Shown: positions 5,192-55,075 of the stretch, piece after piece
How positions within the stretch are numbered: the stretch's first letter is position 1
How the letters are laid out: every line of letters begins with the position of its first letter
Assembly (NCBI GenBank): GCA_963692865.2
Contig: OY843592.1
Coordinates: 3,392,001-3,456,000, forward strand
Direction of reading: 5' to 3'
Source: a bacterium
GTDB lineage: Bacteria > UBA8248
Length of the DNA stretch: 64,000 bases
Notes under the pieces: model-generated
What the model saw: the letters and a program-made list of their open reading frames with translations, nothing else
What the model was told of the DNA's origin: nothing
The model's database searches: none
Translations under genes and position numbers: made by a program

Positions 5192-5398
5192 TTGTCAATC
5201 ATTTTCGCCCAAAAATGAGCGACAAACGGCTTTGTTGTTCATACGTGAGCGACAAGGCGTTTTTTTCGTCTCTATTCGGGCGGCGATGGTGCGTTTCTGC
5301 CAACGAGTGCGAAAAAACCGGCGTTTCCGATCACTTTCAGCCCAAAAGTGCTGCACAAACAAGTTTGTGTTGCATAGATGCGCCTCAAAACGGCTTTT
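5192..5398. repeat. 207-bp direct repeat, copy 1 (downstream of Fic gene)
   Basis: Near-identical to 6629-6835 by direct comparison. Confidence 0.95.
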
Positions 5399-6500
5399 TC
5401 CCCTCCGCAGTGTTGAGTAAATCAGGGAATGAAAGGATAGGCGATCGGCGACCTCCCCCACTTCTAACAACGCTCAGGACTTCATTTTGCCGAAGCACTC
5501 GAAGCACACGCCGCGCCGTCGGCTCAGGAATGCCCGCCGTGTTCACAAAATCAATGCTGCGGAAAATTGGACGCTCAAAGATCCAGTCCAGGGCGTGGAC
5601 GGCGTAGTGGGAGCGGGTCAATTCCGCCACACGTATTTTCATGTCCTCGTAGAGGTCGAGAATGGCCCTGGCTTTGGCCAGATTGTCCTCCGCCTGCACC
5701 TTCACCCCTTCGAGAAAGAATCTGGACCAGCCAGTCCAATCTTCGTCGCGCGAGACGGCGAGCAGCCCATCATAATACGCATCGCGATGCGCTTCGAAAT
5801 AGGCGCTGATGTAGAACATGGGACGGCTGATGAGACCACGCTGCCAAAGGAAAAGAGGCGCCAGCATCCGCCCCAGTCGGCCGTTGCCGTCCAGGAAAGG
5901 GTGCAGGGCTTCGAACTCGGCGTGCAGAACGGCCGCCTGCACCAGTAGAGCGGGCGTATCCTGGTGCATATATCGTTCCCAGGCGCTCATGGCCTCGTCG
6001 AGTTTCTCCGCCCCGATAGGCACGAACGTGGCGGTGTCGATGGAACATCCCGGCGGCCCGATCCAGTTGGGGATGCGCCTATACTCACCGGGGGACTTGT
6101 TCCTCCCACGCACCCCGGAAAGCAATAAGCGGTGTGTCTCGCGGATGACTCTCCCGGAAAGCGGCAACGTTTCCAACATCTTCTCTGCATTCCGCATCGC
6201 GGCGCGGTAGTTGCGTATTTCTTCGATGTCGTCACGACGTTCAGGGGAATCCACCTCCTGCCCCGCCTCGAACTCCAGCACTTCGCCCATGGTGGCCTGG
6301 GTGCCCTCGATGCGCGAGGAGAGCACCGCCTCCTGGGTAGTCAAAGGCGAAAGCAACACGCCGGGGTTGGGGATGGCGGCAAGCACGCCGTCGTAGCGCG
6401 CCAGGGCCGCGACCGCAGGGCCGAGCAGCGGCACGAGCGCTTCCCAATCGAGGCTATCCTCGGGAGGAAAACGCCCTTCATGGTAGTGAACCGGAGTCAT
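5385..6500 (-). CDS. Fic family protein with C-terminal HTH
   Basis: Fic motif HPFLDGNGRLGR; N-terminal inhibitory motif SSRIEG. Confidence 0.93.
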   Translation of the reverse strand: MTPVHYHEGRFPPEDSLDWEALVPLLGPAVAALARYDGVLAAIPNPGVLLSPLTTQEAVLSSRIEGTQATMGEVLEFEAGQEVDSPERRDDIEEIRNYRAAMRNAEKMLETLPLSGRVIRETHRLLLSGVRGRNKSPGEYRRIPNWIGPPGCSIDTATFVPIGAEKLDEAMSAWERYMHQDTPALLVQAAVLHAEFEALHPFLDGNGRLGRMLAPLFLWQRGLISRPMFYISAYFEAHRDAYYDGLLAVSRDEDWTGWSRFFLEGVKVQAEDNLAKARAILDLYEDMKIRVAELTRSHYAVHALDWIFERPIFRSIDFVNTAGIPEPTARRVLRVLRQNEVLSVVRSGGGRRSPILSFPDLLNTAEGKKPF

Positions 6501-16469: not shown

Positions 16470-16619
16470 AAACGCTCCCCACTGGGCGACAATGCCTGTT
16501 AAGGAGGGAGTAATTGTAAACATGCGTAGCGTGACCTTGAAGAAATCCCCTCTCCACTCGACACCATCTCCATCAAAATATATATTATAGATATAATCTT
16601 TTGAGAGGAGGATAATTGC

Positions 16620-16859
16620 ATGGGTGCGAAATCGCACATCGCCAAATGGGGCGACAGCCTGGCCGTCCGCATCCCGAAGCCCATCGCCGAGCAATGGGGC
16701 GTCCGGGAAGGTTCGGCCATCGAGATGAGCGCGCGCGGCGACCGGGTGGTGATGCGCAAGAGAGGCTACCGGCTGGCCGACATGCTCGCCGAGATGAACG
16801 CGGACAACCTCCACGCCGAACAGGACGCCGGCACGGCGCAGGGCGCCGAGGCGTGGTAG
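16620..16859 (+). CDS. mazE: AbrB/MazE antitoxin
   Basis: IAKWGDSLAVRIPK; Y.LADML; G.E.W end. Confidence 0.9.
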   Translation: MGAKSHIAKWGDSLAVRIPKPIAEQWGVREGSAIEMSARGDRVVMRKRGYRLADMLAEMNADNLHAEQDAGTAQGAEAW

Positions 16860-17218
16860 CGAGACGGGAAGTTACCGGCGCGGACTACGTTCCGGGCAGA
16901 GGCGACGTCGTCTGGCTATCCTTCACCCCCCAGGCCGGACACGAGCAGGCGGGCCGCCGCCCCGCGCTGGTCGTCAGCCCGCGAAGCTATAACGAGAAGA
17001 GCAGTCTGGCGCTGTTCTGCCCCATCACTTCGAGAGCCAAGGGCTATCCCTTCGAGGCGGCGCTGCCCGCCGATGGCCCGGTCACGGGCGTGGTTCTCGC
17101 CGATCAGGTGAAGAGCCTCGACTGGCGGGCCAGAGGCGCGCGCCTGGCGTCCAAAGCTCCGCCGCGCGTGGTGGGCGAAGCGCTGGAAAAACTGGCCGTC
17201 CTCCTGGAGCAGGACTGA
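16853..17218 (+). CDS. mazF: MazF endoribonuclease toxin
   Basis: YVP.RGDVVWLSF.PQAGHEQAGRRPALVVSP..YN, CPITS, GYPFE, DQVKSLDW; GTG overlaps mazE. Confidence 0.93.
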   Translation: MVARREVTGADYVPGRGDVVWLSFTPQAGHEQAGRRPALVVSPRSYNEKSSLALFCPITSRAKGYPFEAALPADGPVTGVVLADQVKSLDWRARGARLASKAPPRVVGEALEKLAVLLEQD

Positions 17219-17328: not shown

Positions 17329-18255
17329 ATGAAAGAAGGCATGAGACCCGGCGACCGCCTGCCCTATTCGGCCATCATCGATCGCAAGCCGCTCAAACTT
17401 CCCGAAGGCGCGCGCCTGGCGCTCTGGCCCGTCCTGGCGCTGGAGGTGTGGGACATCGTGCGGCCCATGGCGCGCATGGTGATACCCCCGCCCCAGGGGA
17501 CGCCGATGCTCCCCGATCATCCCAACTGGAGCTGGCACGAATACGGGATGCGGGTCGGCGTGTGGCGCATCAAGCGCATGCTCGACGATCTGGGCGTGCG
17601 CCCGACGGTGACGCTGAACGCCCGCACCTGCCTGGAGTATCCGCGCGTCGCCGGTGCGTGCCTGGAAGCGGGCTGGGAGTTCAACGCCCACTCCTACGAG
17701 CAGGTGCCGATGCACAAGCTCGACGACGAGCGCGCGACCATCGACAAGTGCATGGGCATCATCACGGATTTCTGCGGCAAGAGGCCGCGCGGCTGGTTCG
17801 GACCGGGGTTGACCCAGACGTATAAGACGCTGGATCTGCTCGCCGAGGCCGGTATCGAATACATCGGCGACTGGGTGCTCGACGACCAGCCGGTGCACGT
17901 GAAGACGACGGCCGGCAAGTCGGTCGTGGCGCTGCCCTACAACTACGAGCTCCACGACATCGTGAGCATGGCGATCCAGTATCACGAGTCCCGGGTCTTC
18001 CGCGACCGCGCGATTGATTACTTCGAGACCGTTTACGCCGAAAGCCACGAATCCACCAAGGTAATGTCGGTCGCCATGCACCCCTACCTCTCGGGTTCGC
18101 CGCACCGGATCAAATACGTGCGCGAGACCTTCGAGCATATCCTCTCCAAGCCGGGGGTGGTTTGCTGGGACGGCGAGCAGATTCTCGACTGGTTCCTGAA
18201 AGAACGCCCGGCGCCGAAACCCCGCAGGAGCCGCGCCGGGAGGAAAAGTACCTAG
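17329..18255 (+). CDS. Polysaccharide deacetylase family protein (PuuE allantoinase-like)
   Basis: WHEYGMRVGVWR, RPRGWFGPG, DDQP, MHPYLSG.PHR. Confidence 0.88.
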   Translation: MKEGMRPGDRLPYSAIIDRKPLKLPEGARLALWPVLALEVWDIVRPMARMVIPPPQGTPMLPDHPNWSWHEYGMRVGVWRIKRMLDDLGVRPTVTLNARTCLEYPRVAGACLEAGWEFNAHSYEQVPMHKLDDERATIDKCMGIITDFCGKRPRGWFGPGLTQTYKTLDLLAEAGIEYIGDWVLDDQPVHVKTTAGKSVVALPYNYELHDIVSMAIQYHESRVFRDRAIDYFETVYAESHESTKVMSVAMHPYLSGSPHRIKYVRETFEHILSKPGVVCWDGEQILDWFLKERPAPKPRRSRAGRKST

Positions 18256-18916
18256 CCCGACGACGACGCGGTCCGGCGCCAGTCGCCCGCAGCGTCGCCG
18301 AACCGGCCTGCCGGGAGCGCCCGGAAACCGAAGCGCTCATGGAGGCTTCTCGTCCGTTTCTCCCTCGAAGAAGGTTTCTTTCCGGCGACGCCGCCGAAAG
18401 ATACGCCGAAAGACACGCCATTCACGGACACGGCGGATACGCGGGGGGAGGCGTCTTTGGGGCGAACGCCCGGCAATCTCCGCGCCGCCCCGGCCGCTCG
18501 AACCACGCATTTCCCCGCAGTTGCGGGTTCCGGGGCGGCGTATCATTCTCCCGCTCGACGCGACGCCGATCCGGGAACCGCCCCGCGAGAATCCCCCGTC
18601 GCGCCGTCCGGGCGCGCGGGAGAGGGCGTCACCGGGACGGGCGCCGGGCGGCGAAATCGAGACGAATCAATTCTGAAAAATAAGATAAAATTGGATAAAT
18701 TCACGACGTTTTTCGATAAATTTCCGGCGTTTTTCCCGGGGCGTCCGGGGCGTTCTCGGGGGCGTTCTCGCGCGATGCAGGCGCCCCGGCCGGCGGCTCC
18801 GCAATCCGGGTTCAGGCGCCCCGGCGCCGATCGGAGGGCGCGCCGCCGCTTCCGGATGCGAGGCGGCGGGAGACGGCGGGGCGGTTTTCGGCCGCCGTTT
18901 CCCCCTCTCGCGCCGG

Positions 18917-19031
18917 TTATCCACAGAAAAACACAACATTTGGTGATAACGTGTGGGTAACCTCATATATTTTGTGTATATTCGTTTTTGGGGTATTGAC
19001 AGACGGGGGCAAAGCATACTACATTTAGTGG
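18917..19031 (+). promoter_or_regulatory. nrdJ promoter: two DnaA boxes, three NrdR-like boxes, -35/-10
   Basis: TTATCCACA 18917-25; TGTGGGTAA 18952-60; ACACAACATTTGGTGA 18931-46; CTCATATATTTTGTGT 18962-77; ATACTACATTTAGTGG 19016-31; TTGACA 18996 with TACATT 19020. Confidence 0.75.
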
Positions 19032-19100
19032 CACGGCTTGATTTCGTCATACCAAATGTATCCCCACCACGGCGGGGCGCTCTTGCGGAGGAGGCTGGCA

Positions 19101-22100
19101 GTGGAGTTTGAGAGGCATTTCACCCGGGACGGAGATGAAGCATACCGCGGCATCCGCTTCGCGCCGCGCGCCTCGCGCATCACCAACCCGGACGGCTCGG
19201 TCGTCTTCGAGGCGAAGGACATCATGGCGCCGGAGAACTGGTCCCAGGTGGCCGTCGACATTCTGGCGCAAAAATACTTCCGAAAAGCCGGCGTCCCCGC
19301 CCATTCGAAAAAAATTCCCGAAGACGGCGTGCCCGAGTGGCTCCAGCGCTCGGAGCCGGACACGGAGAAACTCGAGTCCCTGCCCGAGGAAGAGCAATTC
19401 GGATGCGAGCGAGACGCCCGGGACGTTTTCCACCGCATGGCGGGGTGCTGGACGTATTGGGGCTGGAAACACGGCTATTTTCATACCGAAGAAGACGCCA
19501 AGGCGTTTTACGAGGAGCTTTTATACATCCTGGCAAGCCAGATGGCGGCTCCCAACTCGCCGCAGTGGTTCAATACGGGCCTCCACTGGGCCTACGGCAT
19601 TACGCGCCCCGCACAAGGCCATTTCTATTGCGACCCCGAAACCGGGGAAATACGCCGCTCCACCAACGCTTATGAGCGTCCCCAGCCCCATGCGTGCTTC
19701 ATACAATCGGTGAGAGACGATCTCGTCAACGAGGGCGGGATCATGGACCTATGGACGCGCGAGGCGCGCATCTTCAAATACGGCTCGGGAACCGGCACGA
19801 ATTTCTCGAGCCTGAGGGCGGAAGGCGAATCCCTCTCGGGAGGCGGAAAAAGCTCCGGCCTGATGAGTTTCCTCAAGATTGGGGACCGCGCCGCCGGCGC
19901 CATCAAGTCGGGCGGCACGACGCGCCGGGCGGCGAAGATGGTCACGCTCGACATCGACCATCCCGACATCGAGGAATTCATCAACTGGAAGGTGAATGAA
20001 GAACAGAAAGTAGCCGCCTTGGTATCAGGCAGCAAGATGTGCAACCGGCATATGAACGCCATTCTCGGAGCTTGTCTCGAGGGGAAGAACCTGGGCTTGA
20101 ACGGCACCTTCCACCAGCCGGACAAGAACCCATCACTCGCCAAGGCGGTACGCGCCGCCAGATTCGCCGGCGTTCCGGACAACTACATTCATCGCACCCT
20201 TCAACTCGCGCGACAAGGCGTCACCGAAATCGAGTTCGAGGAATTCGACACGAATTGGGAGGGCGAGGCCTACACTTCGGTATCCGGGCAAAACTCAAAC
20301 AATTCCATACGCGTATCAGACGGGTTCATGAAAGCCGTCGAGAAAAACACGGATTGGAGCCTGATTCGGCGCACCGATGGGGAAATCGCCGGCTCCGTCA
20401 GCTCCAAAGAGCTTTGGGATCAGATTGGATATGCGGCGTGGTGTTGCGCAGACCCCGGCCTCCAATTCGACACGACCATCAACGACTGGCACACGTGCGC
20501 CACCGATGGACGCATCAACGGCTCTAATCCCTGCTCCGAATACATGTTCCTCGATGACACCGCATGCAATCTTGCGTCGATGAACCTCATGAAATTCCTG
20601 GATACCGAAAAGAACCATTTCCAGATAAAAGACTACCGCCACGTTATTCGGTTATTAACGGTCGTCCTCGAGATTTCAGTGCTCATGGCGCAATTCCCCA
20701 GTGAAGAAATAGCCAAGCGCTCACATGAATACCGAACCCTGGGGCTTGGATACGCCAACCTCGGCACTGTTTTAATGGTTCTCGGTATTCCTTACGATTC
20801 GCCGGAAGCGGAAGCATGGTGCGGCGCTCTCACATCCATCATGACTGGCTGCTCGTACGCCACCAGCGCCGAGATGGCCGGAGAACTAGGCGCTTTCGCA
20901 AGGTACCAGGACAACCAAGAGCATATGTTGCGAGTTCTGAGAAACCACCGCCGAGCAGCTTATTCAGTGCCTGAAGCCGAATACGAAATGCTCTCGAAAA
21001 CACCAAAAGGAATCGTTGCCGAAATCTGTCCCCACTATCTTCTCCAAGCGGCACGAGAGGCATGGGATGACGCGTTGGCCATCGGCTACCGAAACGGTTA
21101 CCGGAATGCGCAAGCCACCGTCATCGCGCCGACGGGCACCATCGGCCTGGTGATGGATTGCGATACAACGGGAATCGAGCCGGATTTCGCTTTGGTGAAA
21201 TTCAAAAAACTGGCCGGAGGCGGTTATTTCAAGATCATCAACCAGTCTGTTCCTCTTGCCTTACGGCATCTGGGCTATGACGACGAAGAGATACGCGAAA
21301 TCGTCGCCTACTGCCGAGGGCGCGGCACCCTCACGAATGCGCCTCATATCAATCCAGAATCTCTGCACGCAAAAGGATTTACCAGCAAGACCCTCGAAAA
21401 GGTGGAAGCCGCGCTTGAAGGGGCGTTTGAAATTCAGTTCGCCTTCAACAAATACTCCCTAGGTGAAGACTTCTGCCGTGAGCAATTGGGGCTCGATGAA
21501 GCGCAAATCGCCGACTGGAATCTGAATCTGCTCGAAGCCATCGGTTTCACTCCGGAACAAATAACCGAAGCGAATGATTTCGTTTGCGGCAAAATGACGC
21601 TCGAGGGCGCACCCAATCTAAAAGAAGAGCATCTGGCTGTTTTCGATTGCGCGAGCAAATGCGGGCGCGAAGGCAAGCGCTTTATCAGCCCCTTGGCGCA
21701 TGTTCGGATGATGTCGGCGGCGCAGCCTTTCATATCGGGCGCCATCAGCAAAACCATCAACATGCCCGTTGAATCGACGATTCAAGACATATTGGATATC
21801 TATCATGAATCGTGGCAACGGATGACCAAAGCCATTGCGATTTACCGTGACGGCTCGAAACTAAGCCAACCGCTTTCCGCGCAAAGCGAGGCGGAACTCT
21901 TTTGTGATGTCGGCGAGGAAGAAACAACTTCCCAAAGCGCTCCGGTTCACGTAGCCCAACAGATCGTGCGCCGGATTATTTACCAATCCAGAAGACGCAA
22001 GTTGCCCACCCGCCGTGGTGGATACACGCAAAAAGCCGTCATCGGCGGGCACAAAGTGTATCTTAGAACCGGCGAGTACGAAGATGGTTCTATCGGCGAA

Positions 22101-22691
22101 ATTTTCATAGATATGCACAAAGAAGGCGCCGCTTTCAGAAGCCTCATGAACTGTTTCGCCATCGCAATTTCGCTGGGACTCCAGCACGGCGTTCCCCTGG
22201 ATGAATTTGTGGACGCCTTCGTCTTCACGCGCTTCGAACCCGGGGGCATGGTCTCGGGCAACCCGCACATCAAGATGAGCACATCCATCATCGATTACAT
22301 CTTCCGTGAGTTGGCGGTTTCATATCTCGGACGCCACGACCTTGCGCAAGTCGTTTTGGAGGATCTGAGAAGCGACACCATTGGGCGCCCACAGGAAGAG
22401 ATTCCCGAATTCGACGCCGAGGAAGAAGAAGCGATTCAAACCGTATTTCCAGGAGCGGATACGAGCGCACCACGCAGTGACCGGGTAAGTTTGAACTATG
22501 AAAAAGAATCCGCCCACGCTTCCCTGACGCCGGTAACAGAAACAGGTTCCGCTCTCGATTCACGTATCGAAGAAGCCCGCGCCAAAGGTTACGAGGGTGA
22601 GGCATGCAGCGATTGTGGTTTGTTCACCTTGGTAAGAAACGGCACCTGCCTGAAATGTATGACATGTGGCGCGACGAGTGGATGCTCTTGA
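19101..22691 (+). CDS. nrdJ: Vitamin B12-dependent (class II) ribonucleotide reductase with C-terminal TSCPD domain
   Basis: [34 protein letters not shown]-terminal CxxC..[11 protein letters not shown]; GTG after GGAGGAGG. Confidence 0.96.
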
Positions 22692-22700
22692 AATAACTTA

Positions 22701-22996
22701 CCCGTCGTGGGGGAAACGGGCGGACTCTGCGACGGGACGAGAGTCGGGGGAGAATCCTCGGTGGGTTGTCCCCCGACTCTCACCAAAAATGGAATTTTAG
22801 CGAATTCTCTTGCTGCGGGGGAAACGGGCGGACTCTGCGGCAGGACCGGGAGCCGAGGATAATACACCTCGGGGGTTGAGTCCTTGGCTCCCACTATTAA
22901 GTTGAATAAGGTTCCCTGCTGCGGGGGAAACGGGCGGACTCTGTGGCAGGTCGAGAGCCGGTGAAGTCTCCTGGGGGGAGTTCTTCATCGGCTCTC
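22701..22996 (+). ncRNA. Tandem array of three two-hairpin structured RNA-like units (~107-nt period)
   Basis: Invariant GGGGGAAACGGGCGGACTCTG at 22709, 22817 and 22923; stems differ between copies but keep pairing; G-U pairs favour the + strand. Confidence 0.65.
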
Positions 22997-23006
22997 CCTT
23001 TCCCGC

Positions 23007-23035
23007 TTGACACCCGGAGTTCCTTCGCCTACCTT
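23007..23035 (+). promoter_or_regulatory. Sigma70-type promoter of the tRNA gene
   Basis: TTGACA-17 bp-TACCTT, 13 nt before the tRNA. Confidence 0.7.
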
Positions 23036-23048
23036 CAAGTTCCTTTGT

Positions 23049-23124
23049 GGGGGTGTAGCTCAGATGGGAGAGCGCGTGGATCGCACCCACGAGGTCAGGG
23101 GTTCGAATCCCCTCACCTCCACCA
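23049..23124 (+). tRNA. tRNA-Ala(CGC)
   Basis: 76-nt cloverleaf; G3-U70 pair; anticodon arm CGTGG-AT CGC AC-CCACG; GTTCGAATC; encoded CCA. Confidence 0.97.
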
Positions 23125-23141
23125 GCGCAATTTCCTGAAAT

Positions 23142-23996
23142 TCAATCCCACACGTCAAGCATAGCGAGAGCCGCCTCTCGCGTCCTCATCCCTTCTCGTA
23201 CTCCACGCTTTTCCGCCATCTCGTTCATGCATGAAACGACGCCGTCTTCCCATGTGCTCATCACATCACCAATGCGCGCGCTCATGGCTCCGACCGCCGC
23301 CACCGCAATCCCCTCTCGCGCCAGATAGGGAAAAGAAGCGATACCGGAATCATCTTTTCCCCGTCCCGCGTCATTCGCAATCACACCTCTAAGATTGAGC
23401 TTAATGACATGGGGGACGAGAGTGAGCCCGCAATGTGACGCTTGAATAAAAACATCATCTGGCCTTGGTTCCTGCATAGAGCGCAAGACGGGAATTCCCC
23501 ATGAGGCACGTATATTACCATTCGGAAATTGCTCTAGTTCATATATTCTATCATCTAGGCTTTCTTCGACAATCACTTTCCGTCCTTCTTCGGCATCGAG
23601 CAAATAATCCGATGCCTCAGCAATGGACTGACCAATTTCAACACCAAGAGTTTGCGCTACTTGATTCGCATGGCCGACTACGCCTTCATAAACAGATTTT
23701 CCTACGGCGAGTCTGGCGGACATGGTCTCACACGCCACTGCAGGCACGTGATAATTCTGAGCCAAGTGAAGACCGCTGATCCCTGCATCGTCCTTTCCAA
23801 CTCCTGCAGCATGGGCAATAATTGCCCTCACCCCTAACCGCATTGCCCAGGCAATCGTCATTCGTGCAGCGTAAGAACCCGCAACGAGAACGTCCCTTCT
23901 CCCAACCTTCTCGCCAAAATACGTCATCGAATCCGCCGAAAGAATACGGCCGCGCACGTCTTCATCATGAATCGTCTGTTCATCCATCGTCATCAT
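23142..23996 (-). CDS. Hypothetical protein with an internally duplicated domain
   Basis: Two copies of (GS/AS)x...(A/D)AGxGKDDxGI...MSAR(L/I)...N.xA..xGV. Confidence 0.75.
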   Translation of the reverse strand: MMTMDEQTIHDEDVRGRILSADSMTYFGEKVGRRDVLVAGSYAARMTIAWAMRLGVRAIIAHAAGVGKDDAGISGLHLAQNYHVPAVACETMSARLAVGKSVYEGVVGHANQVAQTLGVEIGQSIAEASDYLLDAEEGRKVIVEESLDDRIYELEQFPNGNIRASWGIPVLRSMQEPRPDDVFIQASHCGLTLVPHVIKLNLRGVIANDAGRGKDDSGIASFPYLAREGIAVAAVGAMSARIGDVMSTWEDGVVSCMNEMAEKRGVREGMRTREAALAMLDVWD

Positions 23997-24108
23997 ATTT
24001 TCTTTCGCAAAGCGTGAAGCAAAATGGGTATATTGCAGATATGCCAGATGAAAAAATCGCCCGGCTGATATCTCAACCGGGCGTTGAATGATTTTCTCCT
24101 GCCAGAAG

Positions 24109-24276
24109 CTAGTAATCAGCAGGAGCAATTCCCCCTTCGCCGTCACTCAAAAAAGAGAAATCGACACTTTCATCGTCGTCAGACACATCATAATCCAAAT
24201 CCGTTGGCAATACGTCTCCAGACTCAGCAAAAAACTCATGGTCCAAGACAACATCACTTTCATTGAACTCGATCAT
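24109..24276 (-). CDS. Possible small acidic protein
   Basis: D/E-rich 55-aa frame after GAGGAAG; no recognised motif. Confidence 0.3.
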   Translation of the reverse strand: MIEFNESDVVLDHEFFAESGDVLPTDLDYDVSDDDESVDFSFLSDGEGGIAPADY

Positions 24277-36034: not shown

Positions 36035-36375
36035 CTCGCGCCTCCTCTTGCGCCATCGGTTCGGGGGCTTAAGCCTCCCGCTTTTCCGCCGTTTCTCCGG
36101 GCGCAATTATGGCATATCGCCGTTTTTAATTTTCGGAAATTTATCGAAAGACACGTTCAATATTTCGTCCCATGGACAATCGCACCCCCTGATACCCTGA
36201 AGTACGATAAATCGCTGTATTATAAGCGATAAATCTTGAATTTTCTTTTTCGCCTTCGCTTGCATTTACGACATACTTACGCTTTAATAGCCTCACATTT
36301 GATGCTGGACGTATGCGATTTGATTACGTATCGTCCATATCCTCCGGCCCGAAGTACGATTTCCGGGGAGTTTCC

Positions 36376-37551
36376 ATGCCCAGAAGAAGCGACATCAAGC
36401 TTACCAAGCGCGTCGTCGACGCGCTATCCGTCGAGACGAACGACGCCGTCTTCTGGGACCGGGACCTGGCCGGCTTCGGGGTGCGGGTCTACGCCACGGG
36501 CCGGAAGGTCTACGTGGTGCAGTCGAGAGGGCCGTGGGGCCCCAGGCGCGTGACGCTGGGCAGGCACGGCGAGATGTCGTGTGACGAGGCGAGGAAACAG
36601 GCCGCTCTCGTCATCGATCGCATCAAGCGGGGTGAGGAGCCCGGGCCCAAGGCGCCCGAGGCGGCGCCCACCGTGGCGGTTCTTGCCGAGCGCTTCATGC
36701 GCGACCACGTCGGGACGCGCTGCAGTCCCGACACCGCCGCGACCTACCGCTCCTTGCTCAAGAATCACATCCTGCCCGCGATGGGCGGGATGACGCTTGC
36801 AGATGTCGACCGGGCGCGAGTCTCGGTGCTTCACCACAGCCTCCGGGAGACGCCCACCCTTGCCAACAGGGCCGTGGTCGTTCTCTCCAAGATGTTCTCT
36901 CTGGCCGAGGCGTGGGGCCTGCTTCCTGGCGGGAGCAACCCGTGCCGGGGGCTTCGCCGCTACCGGACGCGGAAGCGGGAGCGGTTCCTGACGCAAGAGG
37001 AGTTCCGCCGCCTGGGCCGCGCGCTGCGTGACCTGGAGGCGGAGGGGAGGACGTGGCCGGTAGCGGCCGCAGCAATCAGGCTCCTGGCCCTCACCGGGTG
37101 CAGGCGGAGCGAGATACTGGACTTGCACTGGGACGACGTGGACCGCACGACGGGGGAGTTGCGCTTGAGGGACGCCAAGGCGGGACCGCGCATGGTTCCG
37201 CTCACGGCGCCTGCCCGGAAGGTGCTGGAAGGGGTCCCCCGGTCGCCGGACAACCCCTGGGTGTTCCCCGCAGGGAACGGGAAGGGCCGCCTGGGGAGCC
37301 TCTCCTACTACTGGGAGGCCGTGAGGGAGCGGGCGGGGTTTCATGATGTCCGCATTCATGACCTCCGGCATTCGTATGCCAGCCGGGCGCTGGCGCTGGG
37401 CGAGAGTCTCTCCGCGATCGGCAGGCTGCTCGGCCACCGCCACGTGGTGAGCACGGCGCGCTACGCGCACCTGATGCGCGATGCCGAGAAGGCGGCGGCC
37501 GCCCGGGTGGGCGAGAGCATCGGCGTCCACGTCAAGAGCCGGGAGAAGTAG
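36376..37551 (+). CDS. Tyrosine integrase with arm-binding domain
   Basis: WDRDLAGFGVRV; TGCRRSE, HDLRHSYAS, LLGH, TARYAH. Confidence 0.95.
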   Translation: MPRRSDIKLTKRVVDALSVETNDAVFWDRDLAGFGVRVYATGRKVYVVQSRGPWGPRRVTLGRHGEMSCDEARKQAALVIDRIKRGEEPGPKAPEAAPTVAVLAERFMRDHVGTRCSPDTAATYRSLLKNHILPAMGGMTLADVDRARVSVLHHSLRETPTLANRAVVVLSKMFSLAEAWGLLPGGSNPCRGLRRYRTRKRERFLTQEEFRRLGRALRDLEAEGRTWPVAAAAIRLLALTGCRRSEILDLHWDDVDRTTGELRLRDAKAGPRMVPLTAPARKVLEGVPRSPDNPWVFPAGNGKGRLGSLSYYWEAVRERAGFHDVRIHDLRHSYASRALALGESLSAIGRLLGHRHVVSTARYAHLMRDAEKAAAARVGESIGVHVKSREK

Positions 37552-37561
37552 AGGGGAAACG

Positions 37562-38727
37562 ATGCAGCCCAAAATCAAAACGCTCTCGAACCGCGCGGTC
37601 GCGAAGCTCGTGGTCGGGAAGGACACGGTGTTCTGGGACCGCGACCTCACCGGCTTCGGGGTGCGGGTCTACCCCACGGGGAGCAAGGTCTAGTCGCCCA
37701 GGCGCGGGGGCCTGAGGGCCCCAAACGGGTGGCGGTGGGCCGCCACGGCGTGATTCACGCGGAGGAGGCCAGGAAGCGCGCGGCGCTCGTCATCGCAAGG
37801 GTCAAGGCGGGCGAGGAGGCCGTGCCTGAGCCGATGAAGCCCGCAGGCGGTCCCACCGTGGCCGAACTCGCCGAGCGCTACCTCGCCGAATACGTCTCCG
37901 TGCGCTGCAAGCCGCGCACCGTGAAGACGGTCCGCTCCGTGGTCCGCAGACACATAGTACCTATCCTTGGGAAGCTGCCCCTTGCCGCGGTCGAGCGCGC
38001 CCACGTCGCGGAACTGCACGGTCGGTTGAGCGCCACGCCCGCGGCCGCGAACCAGGCCGTCCGGGCGCTGTCCGCGATGTACAAACTGGCCGAGAGCTGG
38101 GAGCTGGCGCCTGACGGATTATCGAACCCCTGCCGCGCGATCGCCGAATACCCCGGCCGCCGGCGGGAGCGGTTCCTCACGGAGGCGGAATTCACCCGCC
38201 TGGGAGAGGCACTCGATCAGGTCGAGACAGAGCGTGGCGTATCGGCGAGCGCGGTGGCGGCCATCAGGCTGTTGCTCCTGACCGGGTGCCGGAAGTCGGA
38301 GATCCTCACGCTGCGCTGGGAGGAGGTGGCGCTGGAGGCGGCGGAACTGCGGCTCTCAGACTCCAAGACGGGCGCGCGGGTCGTTTCGCTCTCGGAACCC
38401 GCGGTGAAGCTCCTCGCGGACCTGCCGCGTCTCCCCGGAGTCCCCTGGGTGATCCCCGGCAGGAAGCCGGGCACGCACCTCAAGAAGCTCGACGACGCCT
38501 GGCAGTCCGTCCGCTCGCGCGCGGGGCTCGACGACGTGCGCCTCCATGATCTCCGTCATTCGTTCGCATCGAGAGCTCTCGCGCTCGGCGAGGGGCTTTC
38601 CATGATCGGGAAGCTCCTGGGCCACGCGCGCATCGAGACCACGGCGCGCTACGCGCACCTCGCGCGCGATTCGGTGCGGGAGTCCGCCGAGCGGGTGGCC
38701 GCGAGCATCGCGGCGGACCTGCTGTAG
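37562..38727 (+). pseudogene. Second tyrosine integrase, 1-bp deletion near 37692
   Basis: GSKV followed by TA(c)GTC gives TAG; span 1166 bp = 3n-1; catalytic R-H-R-H-Y residues intact downstream. Confidence 0.85.
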
Positions 38728-39299: not shown

Positions 39300-42107
39300 C
39301 TATATTTCGATCAGGCGATCGAAACGCGTCCTCTCCCTCACCGGCGCCCGCCGCTCCATCGCCTGGGTCTTCTCGTTCGTCCTCTCCGCGTCCCGCGGCC
39401 TCTCGCCGAACGCCTCGAGCGCCGCGATGCGCTCCCCCGTCGCGGCTTCGAGCCGCTCGCGCAGCGCTCTCGCGTCGTCGGTCACGAGTTCCGCCCGGTC
39501 CCGGGCGCGGCTGATCTCCACGTAGAGCGTCTTCTGGTTGGTGAGATCGGGGTGGTTGGCCTCCATCGCGGCGATGACGGTATCGACCGTCCGGCCCTGG
39601 AAGGCGTGGACGGTCGAGGCCCAGGCGCGGTCGACGTGGCGAAGCTGGGGATCGGCGCTCGTCATGTCGAGGATCCTCCCGTCTTCGATGCGGAAGGTGA
39701 CGCGCTTGTCCCTGACGCCGGTCACCTCGGCGGCTTGGCTGTTCATGAGGCCGAGGTCCGGGTCGTTCCGGGTCCAGCGGACCTTGTCGCCCTGGCGCAG
39801 CTCCATATGCTCGACCTTGTATACCTCGACACCGCCGGTACGCGCCGCCAGACGGCCGGGCTCCCAGCGGATATCCCCTCCCTGCCTGCCTTCCAGGATG
39901 ACGGCGCCGTCTTCGTGATCGACGCCCGCCACGCGCAGCTCATCCCCTTTCTCGACGCCGATGCGCTTGTAGGGACGGTGGAAGGCCACCACGTCGCCGG
40001 GCGAATAGTTCGCGGCGAGCGATTTCTGGGGGTTCGTGTAGCCGCGCGAGACGAGGCGCTCCGTGAGGAAGGCCGGGCCGCGTACGACGCCGTCCCTGAC
40101 CAGGCGCTCGCGGACGATGGCGTTGATCTTCTCGCGGATCTTATGGCTCGGCGCCATGAGCCCGGCGTTTGCGCGCGCCTCGGGCGGGAGCGCCAGCCAG
40201 CGCGCGGCGGCGGCGCCCGCGAGGTTGTCGGGCTTCACTTCGGCCACGTTGGAACCCAGTTTCTCGAAGGCGCGCCTGACGTCGCCCGCGAGGGTGGCCT
40301 CGACGGCGGCTTTCAGGTCCTGGTCGCGCTGGCGCATGATCTCCTCCATCACCGCCGTCTTCATGCCAGCGGCCTGGAGCTGCGCGAAGGGTTTGCCGGC
40401 GTCTACTGCGTCGAGCTGTTTCGCATCGCCGACGAGAACGACCCGGGGCAGGCGCAGGACCTCCGAGATGCGGAGCAGTTCGCGCATCTCGCGCGTGGAG
40501 GCCAGAGAGCCCTCGTCCACCACGAGGGCGGTCTTCCCGTAGGCGGCGCGCATTTTTTTCTCGCCCCCTCTCGTGAGGCGGCCTTCGGCGACCCCTGCGT
40601 TTCGCGCGAGGAAGCGCTGGAGCGTCTGGCTCTCGATGCCCGCTTCCGCTTCGAGAGTCCGCGCGGCGGAGGCCGAGGGCGCCAGGCCCTTCACCTCGTA
40701 GCCGTGTTTCTCGAGGAGCGCGCGGGCGCGCTTGAGCATCTTCGTCTTGCCGGTGCCCGCGTATCCCTGCACGCCGACGACGCGGTCGGGGTCCGTGAGG
40801 ATGAGCTTGACGGCCTCGCGCTGGCCATGGGTCAGCGGGCCGTTTCTGAGCGCCTTGTCCACGGCGTGGCCGCGCATGGCGGGGGCGCCCCGTCCCCTGC
40901 CGGTCTCCACCAGGGCGATCGTCTCGCGCTCCTCGGCGACGGCCTTCTCCGTCGTGAACATGTCCCTGTTTCCTGGCAAATCCGCCGCGTGCAGGGCGCC
41001 CGTTTTTTCGAGTCTCGCCACCTCGCGCTCCGCACCCGCCATCGACACGGCGCCGGGCCGCCAGGCGAGCGCGCCCGCGAGCAGGGCCGCGCGGTCGAAG
41101 ACCGCTTCTCGCTCCGCGAGGTGCGCCACGGCCCATTCCACGGCCTCGCGAGCGGGTTCGGCTTCTCTGGCCGGAGCGCTTCTCGTTTTCGCTTCCGTCT
41201 TGAGGGCGGCGGCGTCGAAGCCCAGCTCCTTCGCCTGCTTCTCCCACACGGCCATGACCGCCGACTTGTCGGCCTCTCGCTTGGGGTCCCTCGTCATGAG
41301 CGTGACCCGCTGGGCGGCGCGCTGGTTCCCCGCCGTCGCGCCCAGGCCCCGTTCTTCCATCGCCTTCTCGATCTCCGCTCGCCGGGTCGAGAACGCCTCG
41401 ATCACCTCGCGTGAAACGCCCTCGATCTCGAAGCGCCCGTCCGCGTGGGTCTTCTCCACCCGGTAGCCGAACCCTTCGAGGCCCCGGGCGAGTTCGGTCC
41501 GGTATATCGCGCCGATCAGCATCTTGTTCGCGTAGAGCTTCTCGTTCGACATGGTCCTCCACTTGCCGTCGGCGCCACGCACCATGTTGGCAATGACGGC
41601 GTGCGTGTGGAGCAGGGGGTCCATGTTGCGCGAGGTGTCGTGCCTGAAGGTCGCGATGACGCTCTTCTGGTCCCCCACGCGGACTATCCGCCCGGTCCCG
41701 GGCTCGCTCATCCTGGTCTCGGCGGCGTTGCGCTCCACCCAGTCGAGGGTGCGCTTCACGGCCACCTCGTGGGCCCACATCGCGCGCGCATCGCCGCCGA
41801 GATAGGCCAGCAGCGAGACGGATTTCGGGGCCGAGAGGGTGAGGTCGCGGCCGGGACGGTGGTGGAACGTCCCGTCCTTGCCCGGGCGCCCGAGCCGGCG
41901 CCCCGAACCGTCGGGGACCACGCCCTCGAGCACGGAGCGGAGGGTATCGGGGTCGACCGGACCCGTGAGTCCCAGGTCCTCAGCGCCCCTGCCGCGCCAG
42001 ATGCTCGACTCCCGGTGGTTCCGGTCGTCCTTCGCGTAGTAGTCGTCGCGCTCGAAGTAGGCGACGCACTGCGCGGGCGCGACGAGGGCGCCGATGGATG
42101 CGACCAT
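39300..42107 (-). CDS. traI: MOBF (TrwC/TraI) relaxase-helicase
   Basis: YF..DDYY, DLTLSAPKSVS, HDTSR..DP.LHTH, GYAGTGKT, VDEGS. Confidence 0.95.
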   Translation of the reverse strand: MVASIGALVAPAQCVAYFERDDYYAKDDRNHRESSIWRGRGAEDLGLTGPVDPDTLRSVLEGVVPDGSGRRLGRPGKDGTFHHRPGRDLTLSAPKSVSLLAYLGGDARAMWAHEVAVKRTLDWVERNAAETRMSEPGTGRIVRVGDQKSVIATFRHDTSRNMDPLLHTHAVIANMVRGADGKWRTMSNEKLYANKMLIGAIYRTELARGLEGFGYRVEKTHADGRFEIEGVSREVIEAFSTRRAEIEKAMEERGLGATAGNQRAAQRVTLMTRDPKREADKSAVMAVWEKQAKELGFDAAALKTEAKTRSAPAREAEPAREAVEWAVAHLAEREAVFDRAALLAGALAWRPGAVSMAGAEREVARLEKTGALHAADLPGNRDMFTTEKAVAEERETIALVETGRGRGAPAMRGHAVDKALRNGPLTHGQREAVKLILTDPDRVVGVQGYAGTGKTKMLKRARALLEKHGYEVKGLAPSASAARTLEAEAGIESQTLQRFLARNAGVAEGRLTRGGEKKMRAAYGKTALVVDEGSLASTREMRELLRISEVLRLPRVVLVGDAKQLDAVDAGKPFAQLQAAGMKTAVMEEIMRQRDQDLKAAVEATLAGDVRRAFEKLGSNVAEVKPDNLAGAAAARWLALPPEARANAGLMAPSHKIREKINAIVRERLVRDGVVRGPAFLTERLVSRGYTNPQKSLAANYSPGDVVAFHRPYKRIGVEKGDELRVAGVDHEDGAVILEGRQGGDIRWEPGRLAARTGGVEVYKVEHMELRQGDKVRWTRNDPDLGLMNSQAAEVTGVRDKRVTFRIEDGRILDMTSADPQLRHVDRAWASTVHAFQGRTVDTVIAAMEANHPDLTNQKTLYVEISRARDRAELVTDDARALRERLEAATGERIAALEAFGERPRDAERTNEKTQAMERRAPVRERTRFDRLIEI

Positions 42108-42108
42108 A

Positions 42109-44010
42109 TCAGTAGCTCCTCAGGTTTTCCGGCTGCGGTTCCCTGGGTACAGCGACATCGCTCTCGCCGGGCACATGATCGACGGACGCGCGAGCCTCAT
42201 CACCCGGAGAACCGACCAAGGGTTCTTGCGGCCCGACCTCGGCGTCTTCCGCCTCATCGGCGAGCGTCGCGCCCTCTCTCGGGACGAAGCTCTCCGCGGT
42301 CTTCGGTCTTTCGACGTAGTCGAGCCGGATCCGGGCCACGGGCCAGGGACCGGGGAACTTGAGGTAACCGTTGAGGTTTTCCAGGCGCATGATCTCGGAG
42401 GGCAGCGCCAGGGGGCGCATCTCGCGGCGCTGTGTGAGCGATACGCCGTCGCGCATCGCGCTCGCGCCGTAGCTTAAGCCCTCCGCGTATTCGGTGACCT
42501 CGCCGCGTCCCAGGCTCTCGGCCGACCAGCGCGCCGTCTCCTGGTCGGGCGCGGCCAGCACCACCCGGGTGCCGCACAGGCCCGATACGGTTTCCGCGCC
42601 GTTTCGCCCATACAAATCGCGCAGGGCGGAGAACACCTGGATCCCCAGCACGAAACACCCACCGAACTGGCGGGACTCGGCGAGCCCGGGTTGTAAGCTC
42701 GGAACCTGGTGGAGGGTGGGAAGCTCGTCGAGCACCACCCAGACACGGCGCTCATCGTCCCGGGCGAGGGATAAGAGCGCGTTCACCGCAATCTCGAGCC
42801 AGGTCGAGATGAGGCCCCTGAGACTCGCGTGCTGGTCCCCGCGCGAGGTCAGGAACAGGAAGCCGGTCTCGCCCTCGCGCTCGACCCATTCCCGGATCGA
42901 AAACGGCTTCCCTGAGTCGGGCAGGCATTCGAGCGCGCCCAGGTAAGCGGTCAGCATGGCCCGCACCGAGAGCGCGGTCTTGGGGTTCTCGGGGTCCACG
43001 ATGGACTGCGCCACCGTGCCCTCCATGGCTTCGGCCAGGGAGGTGAGTTCGGTCTTGAGCAGGTGTTCGACGAGAACGCTGTTTTTGGTGACGCCGCGCT
43101 TCCAGAGGACGCCCGCGCCGTTCGCGAAAAGCTGCCGGGCGGCCGTGACCCAGAAGGGGTCCACCGTGTCCTTCTGCTGGGGGATGAGGGCGGCGGCCAT
43201 CGTGTCGAAGTCCCTGGGCGTCCTGGCTTCCAGGAAGGGGGACCAGCGCGGCGCCCGGGCGTCGAGGGGATTCATCAGGACGTCGCGGGCGGGGTCGAAG
43301 AACGCCCGCGTGTAGCTCCCCATCTTGTCGTAGAGGATGCAGCGCTCGCCCCGCTCCCTTATCTGCGCGACAAGGTCCGAGATCAGGACGGTCTTGCCCG
43401 AACCCGTGGTGCCCGAGACGATGGTGTGCTGCGTCTCGGCCCCGTGCGGCCAGGGGACGCCCGCGATACGGGGTTTGGACTTGCGAGCGGCCGGGAAGAA
43501 TCCTCCCGTCAGGCGGGAGAAGAGAGGCGCAACGCGTCTTGCGAGTACCTGAGCCGAGGTCATCTCGGCGCCCCGCACCCTGTGCGCGCGGGCCATGCGC
43601 CGGCCCAGGAACCAGAAGATGAGCGCGAACAGGGCCACGCCGCCCAGACCGATCCAGAGGCCCAGCCAGGCCTTTTTATGGACGGTATCGAGCATGCGTC
43701 TCCTGATCCGCTCGATCCTGGGATCGCTTGCGATGAGAGAGATCCGCTCCAGCGTCCGCTCGCCCGCGCGCCACTCGTATGTCTGGAGCGAATCAGGGTC
43801 GTATTTCAGGGCGAGCTTGAACTCGGCGAGGGTCTCCAGGCCAATGACGCGCCATTCATGGGCGCTCGTCGTCGTGAAGAGGCTCACCGCAGGGGTCAGG
43901 ACGATGCTCAGTACGAGTCCCAGAATCCCCCAGCGCGCGAGCTGGCCCCACATGCGGGCGTCGTGAAGCAGGGTCTGGCCGCCCCGCAGGGTGGCGTTTC
44001 CAATGGTCAT
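42109..44010 (-). CDS. traD: Type IV coupling protein
   Basis: Two TM segments; GTTGSGKT, NPLDAR, DPFW, LDELPTL, RQFGG. Confidence 0.93.
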   Translation of the reverse strand: MTIGNATLRGGQTLLHDARMWGQLARWGILGLVLSIVLTPAVSLFTTTSAHEWRVIGLETLAEFKLALKYDPDSLQTYEWRAGERTLERISLIASDPRIERIRRRMLDTVHKKAWLGLWIGLGGVALFALIFWFLGRRMARAHRVRGAEMTSAQVLARRVAPLFSRLTGGFFPAARKSKPRIAGVPWPHGAETQHTIVSGTTGSGKTVLISDLVAQIRERGERCILYDKMGSYTRAFFDPARDVLMNPLDARAPRWSPFLEARTPRDFDTMAAALIPQQKDTVDPFWVTAARQLFANGAGVLWKRGVTKNSVLVEHLLKTELTSLAEAMEGTVAQSIVDPENPKTALSVRAMLTAYLGALECLPDSGKPFSIREWVEREGETGFLFLTSRGDQHASLRGLISTWLEIAVNALLSLARDDERRVWVVLDELPTLHQVPSLQPGLAESRQFGGCFVLGIQVFSALRDLYGRNGAETVSGLCGTRVVLAAPDQETARWSAESLGRGEVTEYAEGLSYGASAMRDGVSLTQRREMRPLALPSEIMRLENLNGYLKFPGPWPVARIRLDYVERPKTAESFVPREGATLADEAEDAEVGPQEPLVGSPGDEARASVDHVPGESDVAVPREPQPENLRSY

Positions 44011-44174: not shown

Positions 44175-44522
44175 ATGACGAAACGAAAACCATCCAAGGC
44201 GGCGCGGGCAATCGTCCTCGGCGGACCCGCCCTGGCGCTTCTCTTCACCCTGTACGTCCTTGTGAGTGGGAGCGGCGCCCGCCTTTTGTTCGCCGTCTGG
44301 TTCTGTGCCGTCTCCTGGACCTTTCTCGCGGCGCTCGCGGGCGCCCTGTGGCGGGCATTCCTGGGGGATCGTTCCGCCTTCACCGGCTACGAGCTCCCCG
44401 AGGGGGACGGCGACCGCTTCGACTGGGCCACCCGCACGGGCCGCTACGCCTGGCGCCGGGAATACGAGGAAGGTGAACTCCACGTCCATGACGACTATCC
44501 CGGTCACGGACCCATCACCTGA
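44175..44522 (+). CDS. Small inner-membrane protein, candidate entry exclusion factor
   Basis: Two hydrophobic helices; GGAGG RBS; convergent with and overlapping the traG 3' end. Confidence 0.6.
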   Translation: MTKRKPSKAARAIVLGGPALALLFTLYVLVSGSGARLLFAVWFCAVSWTFLAALAGALWRAFLGDRSAFTGYELPEGDGDRFDWATRTGRYAWRREYEEGELHVHDDYPGHGPIT

Positions 44523-47413: not shown

Positions 47414-47424
47414 GGATGTTTTTC

Positions 47425-48837
47425 CTAGCGCGAGCCCGCTGCGCCGCGCGAGAAGGCGAGCGCCGCGCGCAGGTCGGCGGAGAGCGCACCGCTGAGTTCG
47501 GTCTCGATGAGACGGAGTTTCTCGACCACCGCCAGGGCGGTGTTGAACCGTTCGAGGCCCTCGCCGCGGTGACGCGCGAGGGCGGCCCGGTTCCTGCGCA
47601 GCCCCTCGCGCCAGCGCGTGAGCCGCTCGCCGTCCGCGACGTCCATGGATCCGGCGCGCTCCTCGACCGTGCGGTGAAGGTCCGATATCCAGACCTGGAG
47701 CACGTCGAGCGCCACGGCCTCGGCCAGCGCGTCCACCTCCTGCTCCACCACGGCGCCGCGGTAGGCGGCGGCCGCGTTCACGAGCCGGTAGACCGGAAGC
47801 GTCGTGAGGTTCACGAGTCCCAGGGCGTCGGGCGGAGGCGCCGTGTCCGTCCGCACCGCGTCGACGAGTCGGCGGAGCAGTTCCGCGACCCGGTTCCGGA
47901 ATCCCCGCGCCGCCGGCACCGTGAGGCGTCCGAGCGTGGGGTTGAGACACTCGACGGGAGTGTCGCAGCGGTAGACGGGCAGGTCTCCGCCCCCTTCCAT
48001 GAGGACCTCGGTCACGCGGCGGTCGAGCGCCAGGGGTTCGAGCACGCGCACGCGGGGACCTGCGGAGTCCGCGTCCGATACCGGGGCCGTCACGATGACG
48101 GAGCCGGATACGGACATGGCGAATTCGCCGAGGTCCCGGTCAGACGCCAGGAAACCCGAGGCTCTGACCGCGCGCCAGGCGTAGTTCACGTTGACCGGCG
48201 CCTGTTCCTTGAGCGGCCCCGTAGCGGCCGCCAGCGTCGAATTGCGTTTCCCGTCCGCGCCGCAGCCATGTCGCGCGGCCGCGTAGTCCGAAAAAATGCC
48301 CTGCCGCGTCCCGATCGCGGCGCAGATGGCGGCGCTCGCCCGGTCGTTCTTCGACCAGACGGCGCCGACGAGCGCCTGGGCGGTCTCGCAGGAGTTCAGG
48401 TTCTGGTTGTTCACCCACTGGGCGAGCGCCCGCAGCTTGGACATCGTCTCTGCGATCACGGGCGAGATGGTCTCGAGCGCGAGTTCGAAGGCGAAGCCCG
48501 CCGCGTTCTGCGCCACGGCGCGGGCGAAGGCGATCATCTGGTCGGAATCGATGAAGGAAAACGCGCCGGCGAACGCGTCGATGCCGCCGCAGCCGGCCCG
48601 CCAGGAGGGCAGGCTCATCGTGGCGATCGATTCGGACCGCACGGGCGCGCGCAGGTACAAATTACCGAGCGTCCAGTGGCCCGACGCCTGGCCCTGGAAG
48701 GCCGTGGGCCCGGTGGTGTTCACCGCCGCGCCCCGCCAGAAGTTCTCCATCTCGGAGAGGATGTCCGCGCGCGCGGGGGCGGCGATGAGGAGGGCGAGGA
48801 CCAGGGCGAGCCTCGGGATTTTTCGGATGATTGTCAT
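47425..48837 (-). CDS. traH: TraH
   Basis: NTTGPTAFQGQ.SG, PS.RAGCGGIDAF.G.FSFI, NSCETAQALV. Confidence 0.93.
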   Translation of the reverse strand: MTIIRKIPRLALVLALLIAAPARADILSEMENFWRGAAVNTTGPTAFQGQASGHWTLGNLYLRAPVRSESIATMSLPSWRAGCGGIDAFAGAFSFIDSDQMIAFARAVAQNAAGFAFELALETISPVIAETMSKLRALAQWVNNQNLNSCETAQALVGAVWSKNDRASAAICAAIGTRQGIFSDYAAARHGCGADGKRNSTLAAATGPLKEQAPVNVNYAWRAVRASGFLASDRDLGEFAMSVSGSVIVTAPVSDADSAGPRVRVLEPLALDRRVTEVLMEGGGDLPVYRCDTPVECLNPTLGRLTVPAARGFRNRVAELLRRLVDAVRTDTAPPPDALGLVNLTTLPVYRLVNAAAAYRGAVVEQEVDALAEAVALDVLQVWISDLHRTVEERAGSMDVADGERLTRWREGLRRNRAALARHRGEGLERFNTALAVVEKLRLIETELSGALSADLRAALAFSRGAAGSR

Positions 48838-48841
48838 TCGT

Positions 48842-49639: not shown

Positions 49640-49649
49640 GGCCTCCCCC

Positions 49650-51442: not shown

Positions 51443-51452
51443 ATTACGTTCC

Positions 51453-54351: not shown

Positions 54352-54385
54352 CTCCTTGCTCCTCTGGTGTCGGGTGGTTCTTCGT

Positions 54386-55033: not shown

Positions 55034-55075
55034 TCGGGTTGATGTTCGTTTTCAGGTGTCAGGGGTGATGAAACG

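Follow-up and report, generated by a model that had tools for sequence, protein, structure and literature searches.

The ribonucleotide reductase gene nrdJ of the bacterium UBA8248 is followed by a tandem array of two-hairpin repeats, which we describe here from a 64-kb window (the whole stretch of 64,000 nucleotides that was analysed; positions count from its first letter). The nrdJ open reading frame (ORF) occupies 19038-22691 on the + strand, and its Pfam matches (Ribonuc_red_lgC, 4.5e-125; Ribonuc_red_2_N, 1.7e-43) identify the product as a ribonucleotide reductase of the B12-dependent class II. Translation probably starts from a GTG at 19101 preceded by GGAGGAGG; tblastn matches to NrdJ start at residue 22 in five loci. 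Nine nucleotides past the nrdJ stop codon the array begins, in what would be the nrdJ 3' untranslated region (3'UTR), and it comprises three units on the + strand (22701-22781, 22809-22892 and 22915-22996). Beyond the array lie a promoter-like site (TTGACA-17 nt-TACCTT; 23007-23035, + strand) and, 13 nt after its end, the gene for tRNA-Ala(CGC) (23049-23124, + strand).

Each unit consists of a first hairpin (HP1) with a 12-bp stem and a 12-nt loop, GAAACGGGCGGA, then a junction of 2-3 nt and a longer second hairpin (HP2) built from a 13-14-bp outer stem and a short apical stem. All features of the array are on the + strand. In unit 1, HP1 (22701-22736) combines a covarying lower stem with a conserved loop and a conserved upper stem, GGGG/CUCU (G-C, G-U, G-C, G-U), and HP2 (22739-22781) is an inverted repeat with a 13-bp outer stem and an apical CCU-NGG-NGG mini-hairpin, immediately followed by ACCA. 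Linker 1 (22782-22808; 27 nt, 70% A+T) is a candidate single-stranded endonuclease site. Unit 2 has its HP1 at 22809-22844, placed by fold and alignment, and an HP2 (22848-22892) of a middle-unit type that we saw only in the closest clade; linker 2 (22893-22914) is 22 nt long and 73% A+T. In unit 3, HP1 (22915-22950) was likewise placed by fold and alignment, and HP2 (22953-22996) is an inverted repeat with a 14-bp outer stem and a 5-bp apical stem.

A repeat search of the window returned the array as one direct-repeat family of three copies, spaced by 108 and 106 nt. Its 21-nt core, GGGGGAAACGGGCGGACTCTG, occurs at 22709, 22817 and 22923, always on the + strand (0 copies expected from 100 shuffles), and no further copy was found in the 64-kb window even at 3 mismatches. 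We folded the region 22690-23010 and obtained -166.7 kcal/mol for the + strand (z = -7.07; 0/100 shuffles as stable) and -124.9 kcal/mol for the - strand (z = -4.86). Hence, repeat search and folding agree with a preliminary description of this DNA, made from the sequence alone, in the positions of the three units, the two-hairpin layout and the A/T-rich linkers, and its 12-bp HP1 stem recurs in each unit.

We searched a genome collection with the exact 18-mer GGGGAAACGGGCGGACYC and obtained 57 loci, of which 17 are true homologs, from 17 other species-level genomes (L004, L013, L015, L019, L020, L021, L023, L024, L025, L028, L030, L034, L038, L039, L043, L045 and L051); four of these (L015, L023, L025 and L038) carry Nitrospinota or Nitrospinaceae labels. 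The other 40 loci are single 18-mer matches in unrelated taxa, without hairpin context and with covariance-model scores of at most 26.7 bits. Counting the window with the 17 homologs, the order nrdJ, one to three units, conserved promoter and tRNA-Ala(CGC), all on one strand, holds in 18/18 loci, and the NrdJ proteins of the homologs are 73.3-93.6% identical to the window protein. Each of eight records labelled 'chromosome: 1' (2.9-4.5 Mb) has one locus.

The 18 loci contain 46 units, 37 of them distinct. Three units are present in 11 loci (including the window), two in six and one in L019. In L013 and L024 the middle unit has no HP1 and its HP2 is retained. The single L019 unit joins an HP1 of the first-unit type to an HP2 of the last-unit type, as expected if recombination had taken place between the invariant cores. 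The minimum kept everywhere is at least one HP1 followed by a terminal HP2. We also observed an NCCA, mostly ACCAAA, directly 3' of the first-unit HP2 in 16/18 loci (22782-22785 in the window), the rest of that linker being poorly conserved; a helix with a 3' NCCA is shaped like the minihelix substrates of RNase P or the CCA enzyme.

All 46 units fold individually into HP1 and HP2. We aligned them with MAFFT (alignment A1, with statistics counted on the distinct rows), and RNAalifold gave 26 pairs, 15 of which show double-sided changes with pairing kept. Shuffled alignments fell short on each of four measures: stem cells paired (96.0% of 961 observed vs 86.7% shuffled), pairs changed on both sides (14/26 vs 9.0), cells changed on both sides (112 vs 36.7) and covariation score (0.439 vs 0.248), with 0/500 shuffles reaching the observed value in every case. 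As a control, sliding the 3' partners by 1-3 columns gave 45-57% pairing and covariation scores of 0.09-0.12. A few cells of the HP1 helix count as unpaired because the A1 row for the first unit of L015 is one base short at its 5' end, which was mended in the first-unit alignment. Since mixing paralogous units could inflate the counts, orthologous sets were folded separately, and we found double changes in 9/31 pairs for last units alone (n = 18) and in 8/30 pairs for first units alone (n = 17).

Strand preference points the same way. Over the 37 distinct units the stem cells comprise 736 Watson-Crick, 187 G-U, 8 A-C and 30 other combinations, the G-U excess on the + strand that the preliminary description had noted. 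The + strand is also the more stable one in 37/37 distinct units, with a mean minimum free energy of -53.4 kcal/mol vs -38.4 kcal/mol for the - strand. Hence, the alignment statistics, the separate first- and last-unit alignments and the strand stability uphold the proposal that these covarying hairpins are selected as + strand RNA, and we regard a + strand RNA structure under selection as very likely.

We compared sequence identity across ten close three-unit loci; L015 was left out because it is too divergent to align across the linkers. Mean pairwise identity was highest in the hairpins (0.96-0.99 for HP1 and 0.89-0.96 for HP2), followed by the third codon positions of nrdJ (0.74), the linkers (0.53 for linker 1 and 0.61 for linker 2) and the spacer from the stop codon to the first HP1 (0.49). 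The array is under purifying selection, and it has a single conserved locus and a variable copy number.

Conservation within the units is uneven. AACGGGCGGACTCTG, together with the three G before the loop, is identical in 46/46 units, and AACGGGCGGACUCUG is invariant in 46/46; variation in the HP1 loop is confined to its first two positions. Because retrieval used an exact 18-mer, every locus necessarily has one or more units with that string, so the informative part is the invariance in the remaining units, which include the three quite different units of L015. The lower eight HP1 pairs covary freely. The upper HP1 helix reads G-C, G-U, G-C, G-U, and its two wobbles are kept in 46/46 and 45/46 units, though A-U would pair. 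The base of HP2 is purine-rich (GAGAG, GAGGG or GGGAG) and pairs with CUCUC-like 3' arms, and the HP2 apex is conserved as CCU-NGG-NGG. We read HP1 as a putative recognition site, because its loop and its upper helix with the wobbles are fixed and its lower stem needs only to pair; a lower stem that covaries beneath a fixed helix and loop would match the usual pattern of protein-binding hairpins.

The array is presumably transcribed with nrdJ as its 3'UTR, because a consensus scan of 22000-23600 found no + strand promoter-like site, the first HP1 follows the stop codon so closely, a T-run comes after the last HP2 and the tRNA promoter is situated past the array. The TTGAA-like words upstream of units 1 and 3 lack conservation, and that of unit 1 overlaps the stop codon. 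T-runs of 3 or more lie within 10 nt of 17/18 last units vs 7/28 internal units, and HP1 is never followed by one. The tail past the last hairpin (22997-23006, + strand) reads CCTTTCCCGC in the window, and the T-run is 5 or 6 long in 10/17 homologs. The HP2 of unit 3 is likely the intrinsic terminator of nrdJ.

TTGACA-N17/18-TAnnTT occurs between the last unit and the tRNA in 18/18 loci, ending 13-15 nt before the tRNA. Hence, a separate promoter serves the tRNA; upstream of that promoter, in the 3' region of nrdJ, lies the array. The consensus promoter scan missed this site in the window because the second hexamer fits at only 3/6 positions. The nrdJ transcription unit probably extends no further downstream than this site. 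The spacing, the scan, the T-runs and the tRNA promoter thus lend indirect support to the co-transcription with nrdJ that had been proposed.

The element matched no described RNA family. Across the whole window, Rfam 15 at its gathering thresholds matched only tRNA, and at E up to 10 in 22500-23200 the array received only hairpin-shaped chance matches of 11-20 bits, vs thresholds of 45-150. A covariance model, R1, was built from A1, as the preliminary description had suggested, and searched against 478 kb (the window and all 57 loci). It found all 46 units at 73-103 bits; the next best scores, at most 35.8 bits, were antisense matches to the same arrays, and there was no further copy in the 478 kb. 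A plasmid collection (72,556 records) and a phage collection (50,697) held no match to the array. Since compensating changes are conserved in Nitrospinota and no described family matched, we consider this a new structured RNA, and on sequence grounds we rate it as a new RNA family with an architecture of a known kind. The earlier remark that the family was not recognisable is therefore in line with the Rfam result.

In the literature covered (most subscription journals lay outside the search) we found nothing relevant on the element or on small RNAs (sRNAs) of Nitrospinota, and the loop and core strings occurred in no paper. In one report, nrdJ is only a landmark near the cyanobacterial yfr6 gene (PMC1242208). 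Closest in layout, as the preliminary description had noticed, are CcsR1-4, or cuckoo RNAs (RSs0680a-d), of Alphaproteobacteria, in which 2-4 adjacent hairpins with variable stems stand as modules in a row (PMC4615179, PMC8034643). Each cuckoo hairpin loop carries CCUCCUCCC (PMC4615179), and CcsR in its CIN1 context is co-transcribed with a DUF1127 gene (PMC8034643). Members of that family mature into individual sRNAs with the help of RNase E, a trait for which the array offers only its A/U-rich linkers.

The two systems share adjacent two-hairpin modules, variable stems, a conserved motif that recurs in the loops, a final hairpin resembling a terminator and a module number that varies between genomes. 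They differ in the loop, which is the G-rich GAAACGGGCGGA here vs the anti-Shine-Dalgarno CCUCCUCCC there; CCTCCTCCC is absent from the array, in which the loops are GAAACGGGCGGA (HP1) and CCU-NGG-NGG (HP2 apex) in all 46 units. In our array the conserved loop motif is on HP1 only, HP2 having another conserved apex, and part of the helix is invariant as well. Here the upstream gene is nrdJ and the host belongs to Nitrospinota, whereas there the gene encodes a DUF1127 protein. Membership in CcsR/cuckoo thus fails on loop motif, partner gene and taxon.

Three other known architectures bear comparison. Protein-titrating RNAs such as CsrB, RsmY and RsmZ consist of repeated hairpins with the same short motif. 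Similarly, the HP1 loop closes with GGA in 46/46 units, and the first-unit HP2 apex reads CGGAG. However, invariance extends to at least 10 nucleotides of the loop, far beyond the demands of a GGA site, and the modules, which number only 1-3, are part of an mRNA 3'UTR; GGA in the HP2 apex is found mainly in first units, and the flanks are unlike the A(N)GGA consensus. Tandem protein-binding 3'UTR hairpins that gate endonucleolytic decay are represented by the iron-responsive elements of transferrin-receptor mRNA, and apo-aconitase acts on bacterial acn 3'UTRs. The array resembles the former in having hairpin copies with an invariant loop and upper stem, A/U-rich separators and a 3'UTR location in a metabolic gene under tight regulation; there is, however, no similarity of sequence or structure and the context is that of a bacterial intrinsic terminator, so the likeness is a functional analogy and the two are not relatives. 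REP/BIME elements and stabilising 3' stem-loops share with the array stable G+C-rich hairpins past a stop codon that could block 3' exonucleases, but the array, in contrast to REP/BIME, is not dispersed, its units all have the same orientation, its loop sequence is conserved and each genome has a single locus in the exact 18-mer search.

Several further candidates were tried and set aside. A type III toxin-antitoxin antitoxin RNA (ToxI-like), in which a terminator and a toxin gene come after tandem RNA repeats on the same strand, does not fit a locus with only tRNA-Ala downstream on the + strand, where the next ORF is convergent (- strand). In a CRISPR array the segments between the cores would not be conserved hairpins common to the genomes, as they are here, and no Cas family was found among the 54 ORFs scanned. 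The guanidine-II (mini-ykkC) riboswitch, which consists of two short hairpins with ACGR tetraloops in a 5' leader, is at odds with the 12-nt loop, the 3'UTR position and the lack, even at E up to 10, of an Rfam match. The likenesses of the junction sequence ACGAGAG (between HP1 and HP2) to the sarcin-ricin loop and of CCUAGG to a tetraloop receptor concern short motifs that here stand in another structural context, and we attribute both to chance. An alternative, antiterminator-like pairing of the HP1 CUCU with the GAGAG base of HP2 was seen by eye in unit 1 and is not kept in L015. A coding repeat was excluded because the unit spacing is not consistently in frame (a multiple of 3 in only 14/28 cases) and the longest stop-free stretch switches strand and frame between loci.

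The explanation we favour, tentatively and at somewhat short of an even chance, is that the array acts by binding a factor. It would be a lineage-specific structured element of the nrdJ 3'UTR, made of 1-3 tandem modules and produced whenever nrdJ is transcribed. HP1 would present a recognition surface, the loop nucleotides AACGGGCGGA on the invariant G-C/G-U/G-C/G-U helix, with a lower stem that needs pairing only, and would be bound by a trans-acting factor, most likely a protein. HP2, long and stable, would protect the module against 3' exonucleases, and in the last module it would also terminate nrdJ transcription. Binding of the factor would then either determine how long the nrdJ message persists, for instance through control of cleavage within the A/U-rich linkers, or titrate the factor itself. 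The terminator role, the protein partner and any effect on nrdJ are what we infer from these sequences.

Several observations weigh against this explanation. The T-run past the last HP2 is only 3 long in the window itself, and the consensus terminator scan called no full-length HP2, only short sub-hairpins inside the array. Among the ORFs scanned, no RNA-binding protein gene is evident beside the array. Retrieval with an exact 18-mer selects for the invariant core, so that the 46/46 invariance is biased by one or more units in each locus. Close kin abound among the 18 genomes (NrdJ is >92% identical in 11), so that the independent events number well below the cells counted. Finally, the invariant, partly single-stranded 15-mer would suit a base-pairing seed equally.

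A more specific version of the factor-binding proposal, which we consider unlikely, is a dedicated post-transcriptional switch for ribonucleotide reductase, in which a sensor on the HP1 G-U helix and 12-nt loop would gate linker cleavage and so set the lifetime of the nrdJ mRNA. A protein might serve as this putative sensor, with NrdJ itself and a factor responsive to nucleotides or B12 among the conceivable candidates, or a small ligand might be bound directly in its place. If true, the array would be a bacterial counterpart of the eukaryotic 3'UTR iron-responsive-element arrays.

The invariant stretch of 15 nt can also be accommodated by 3'UTR-derived base-pairing sRNAs of the CcsR kind, an account that is possible but which we hold to be less probable than factor binding. 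The linkers would be cut, for instance by RNase E, into about three RNAs of 85-105 nt, each ending in a protective HP2, and the HP1 loop with its weak G-U upper stem would be the seed for C/U-rich target mRNAs; the linkers are indeed 70-73% A+T and unconstrained, and the G-U-rich upper stem would open easily. However, the G opposite each upper-stem U is fixed though A pairs, which a seed on the 3' arm alone leaves unexplained. Targets are also wanting in the window, where the reverse complement of the loop (at most 2 mismatches) has 9 sites outside the array vs 13.9 expected, none of them in nrdJ or its leader. An 11-nt antisense match to the HP1 core upstream of nrdJ (18893-18903), over which R1 gives a weak match (18847-18906; 18.9 bits, E = 0.54), was dropped because it is missing from all 17 homologs. 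A passive 3' end structure demands less: fail-safe tandem terminators and exonuclease barriers would need no particular partner to stabilise the nrdJ mRNA and to insulate the tRNA gene. The very stable hairpins (the mean of -53.4 kcal/mol is per unit), the T-run past the last HP2 in 17/18 loci and a copy number of 1 to 3, with a single unit sufficing in L019, are all consistent with that, but a barrier needs pairing only, so the invariant 12-nt loop and upper helix (46/46) and the CCU-NGG-NGG apex go unexplained. T-runs, moreover, never follow HP1 and follow internal HP2 in just 7/28 cases, and we judge a purely passive role improbable.

The fixed G-U pairs and invariant loop could instead form a tertiary or ligand pocket, so that HP1, perhaps docked on HP2, would be one of a set of tandem small-molecule aptamers for a deoxynucleotide- or B12-linked metabolite and would alter 3' end formation or decay of nrdJ. 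A tandem arrangement occurs in some riboswitch classes, and the HP1-HP2 joint of just 2-3 nt would let distal parts touch. Against this, no riboswitch family matched at E up to 10, a 36-nt hairpin without a covarying tertiary contact is a thin basis, terminator tails are mostly missing from internal HP2, and we know of little precedent for bacterial riboswitches in a 3'UTR; such aptamers seem to us highly doubtful. Least credible of all is an element that acts at the DNA level or is mobile or coding (REP/BIME, MITE, attC-like, a coding repeat or a hairpin site in single-stranded DNA). The tandem layout and the copy-number differences between genomes would fit, and single-stranded DNA tolerates G-T pairs, the + strand being the more stable in 36/37 units with DNA parameters too. 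Yet each genome has one locus by the exact 18-mer search, always in the nrdJ/tRNA-Ala interval, and R1 found no extra copy in the 478 kb, which is the opposite of the dispersed REP/MITE family that the preliminary description had named as its refutation; plasmid and phage records are without a match, no transposase or integron integrase adjoins the array, and the covariation argues for a folded single strand.

Other features of the neighbourhood were recorded alongside the array. Upstream of nrdJ (18930-19101), three palindromes overlap a TTGACA promoter and are kept in homologous loci; they resemble NrdR boxes. Further upstream, 18250-18910 is a long, very G+C-rich stretch with short GGGGCGTTCTCG-like direct repeats, in which no ORF has a family match. 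Downstream of the tRNA, a convergent ORF of 334 aa (23142-24146, - strand) is conserved in 12/17 loci, and its sole Pfam match is weak and partial (IMS, impB/mucB/samB; residues 296-326).

Elsewhere in the window, 36313-62000 looks like an integrative conjugative element, with tyrosine integrases (36313-37551 and 37729-38727, both + strand), a TrwC relaxase (39300-42107, - strand), a TrwB/TraD coupling protein (42109-44010, - strand) and the F-type proteins TraG, TraH, TraF, TraN, TrbC, TraU, TraC, TraV and TraK (44504-60028, - strand); its G+C content is 0.64-0.72 vs ~0.52 at 20-34 kb. The ORF at 16616-17218 (+ strand) has a PemK/MazF-like toxin domain; since the domain covers only residues 95-196 of 200, the ORF probably either has a wrongly placed start or includes an upstream antitoxin frame. 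The ORF at 5385-6500 (- strand) encodes a Fic/DOC-domain protein.

Nitrospinota is the main marine nitrite-oxidising phylum, and to our knowledge little is known of its RNA biology. Few enzymes are controlled as tightly as ribonucleotide reductase, and its known bacterial control is exerted by transcription (NrdR) and allostery; we know of hardly any documented control through a bacterial 3'UTR. The array ties a structured RNA with an invariant, putative recognition loop to nrdJ in every carrier genome, and R1 can seed a description of the family. If it merely stabilises the message, the array still shows which sequence features such elements conserve. If instead it binds a factor or yields small RNAs, it would add an RNA family not described before and a further level of regulation to the supply of DNA precursors.

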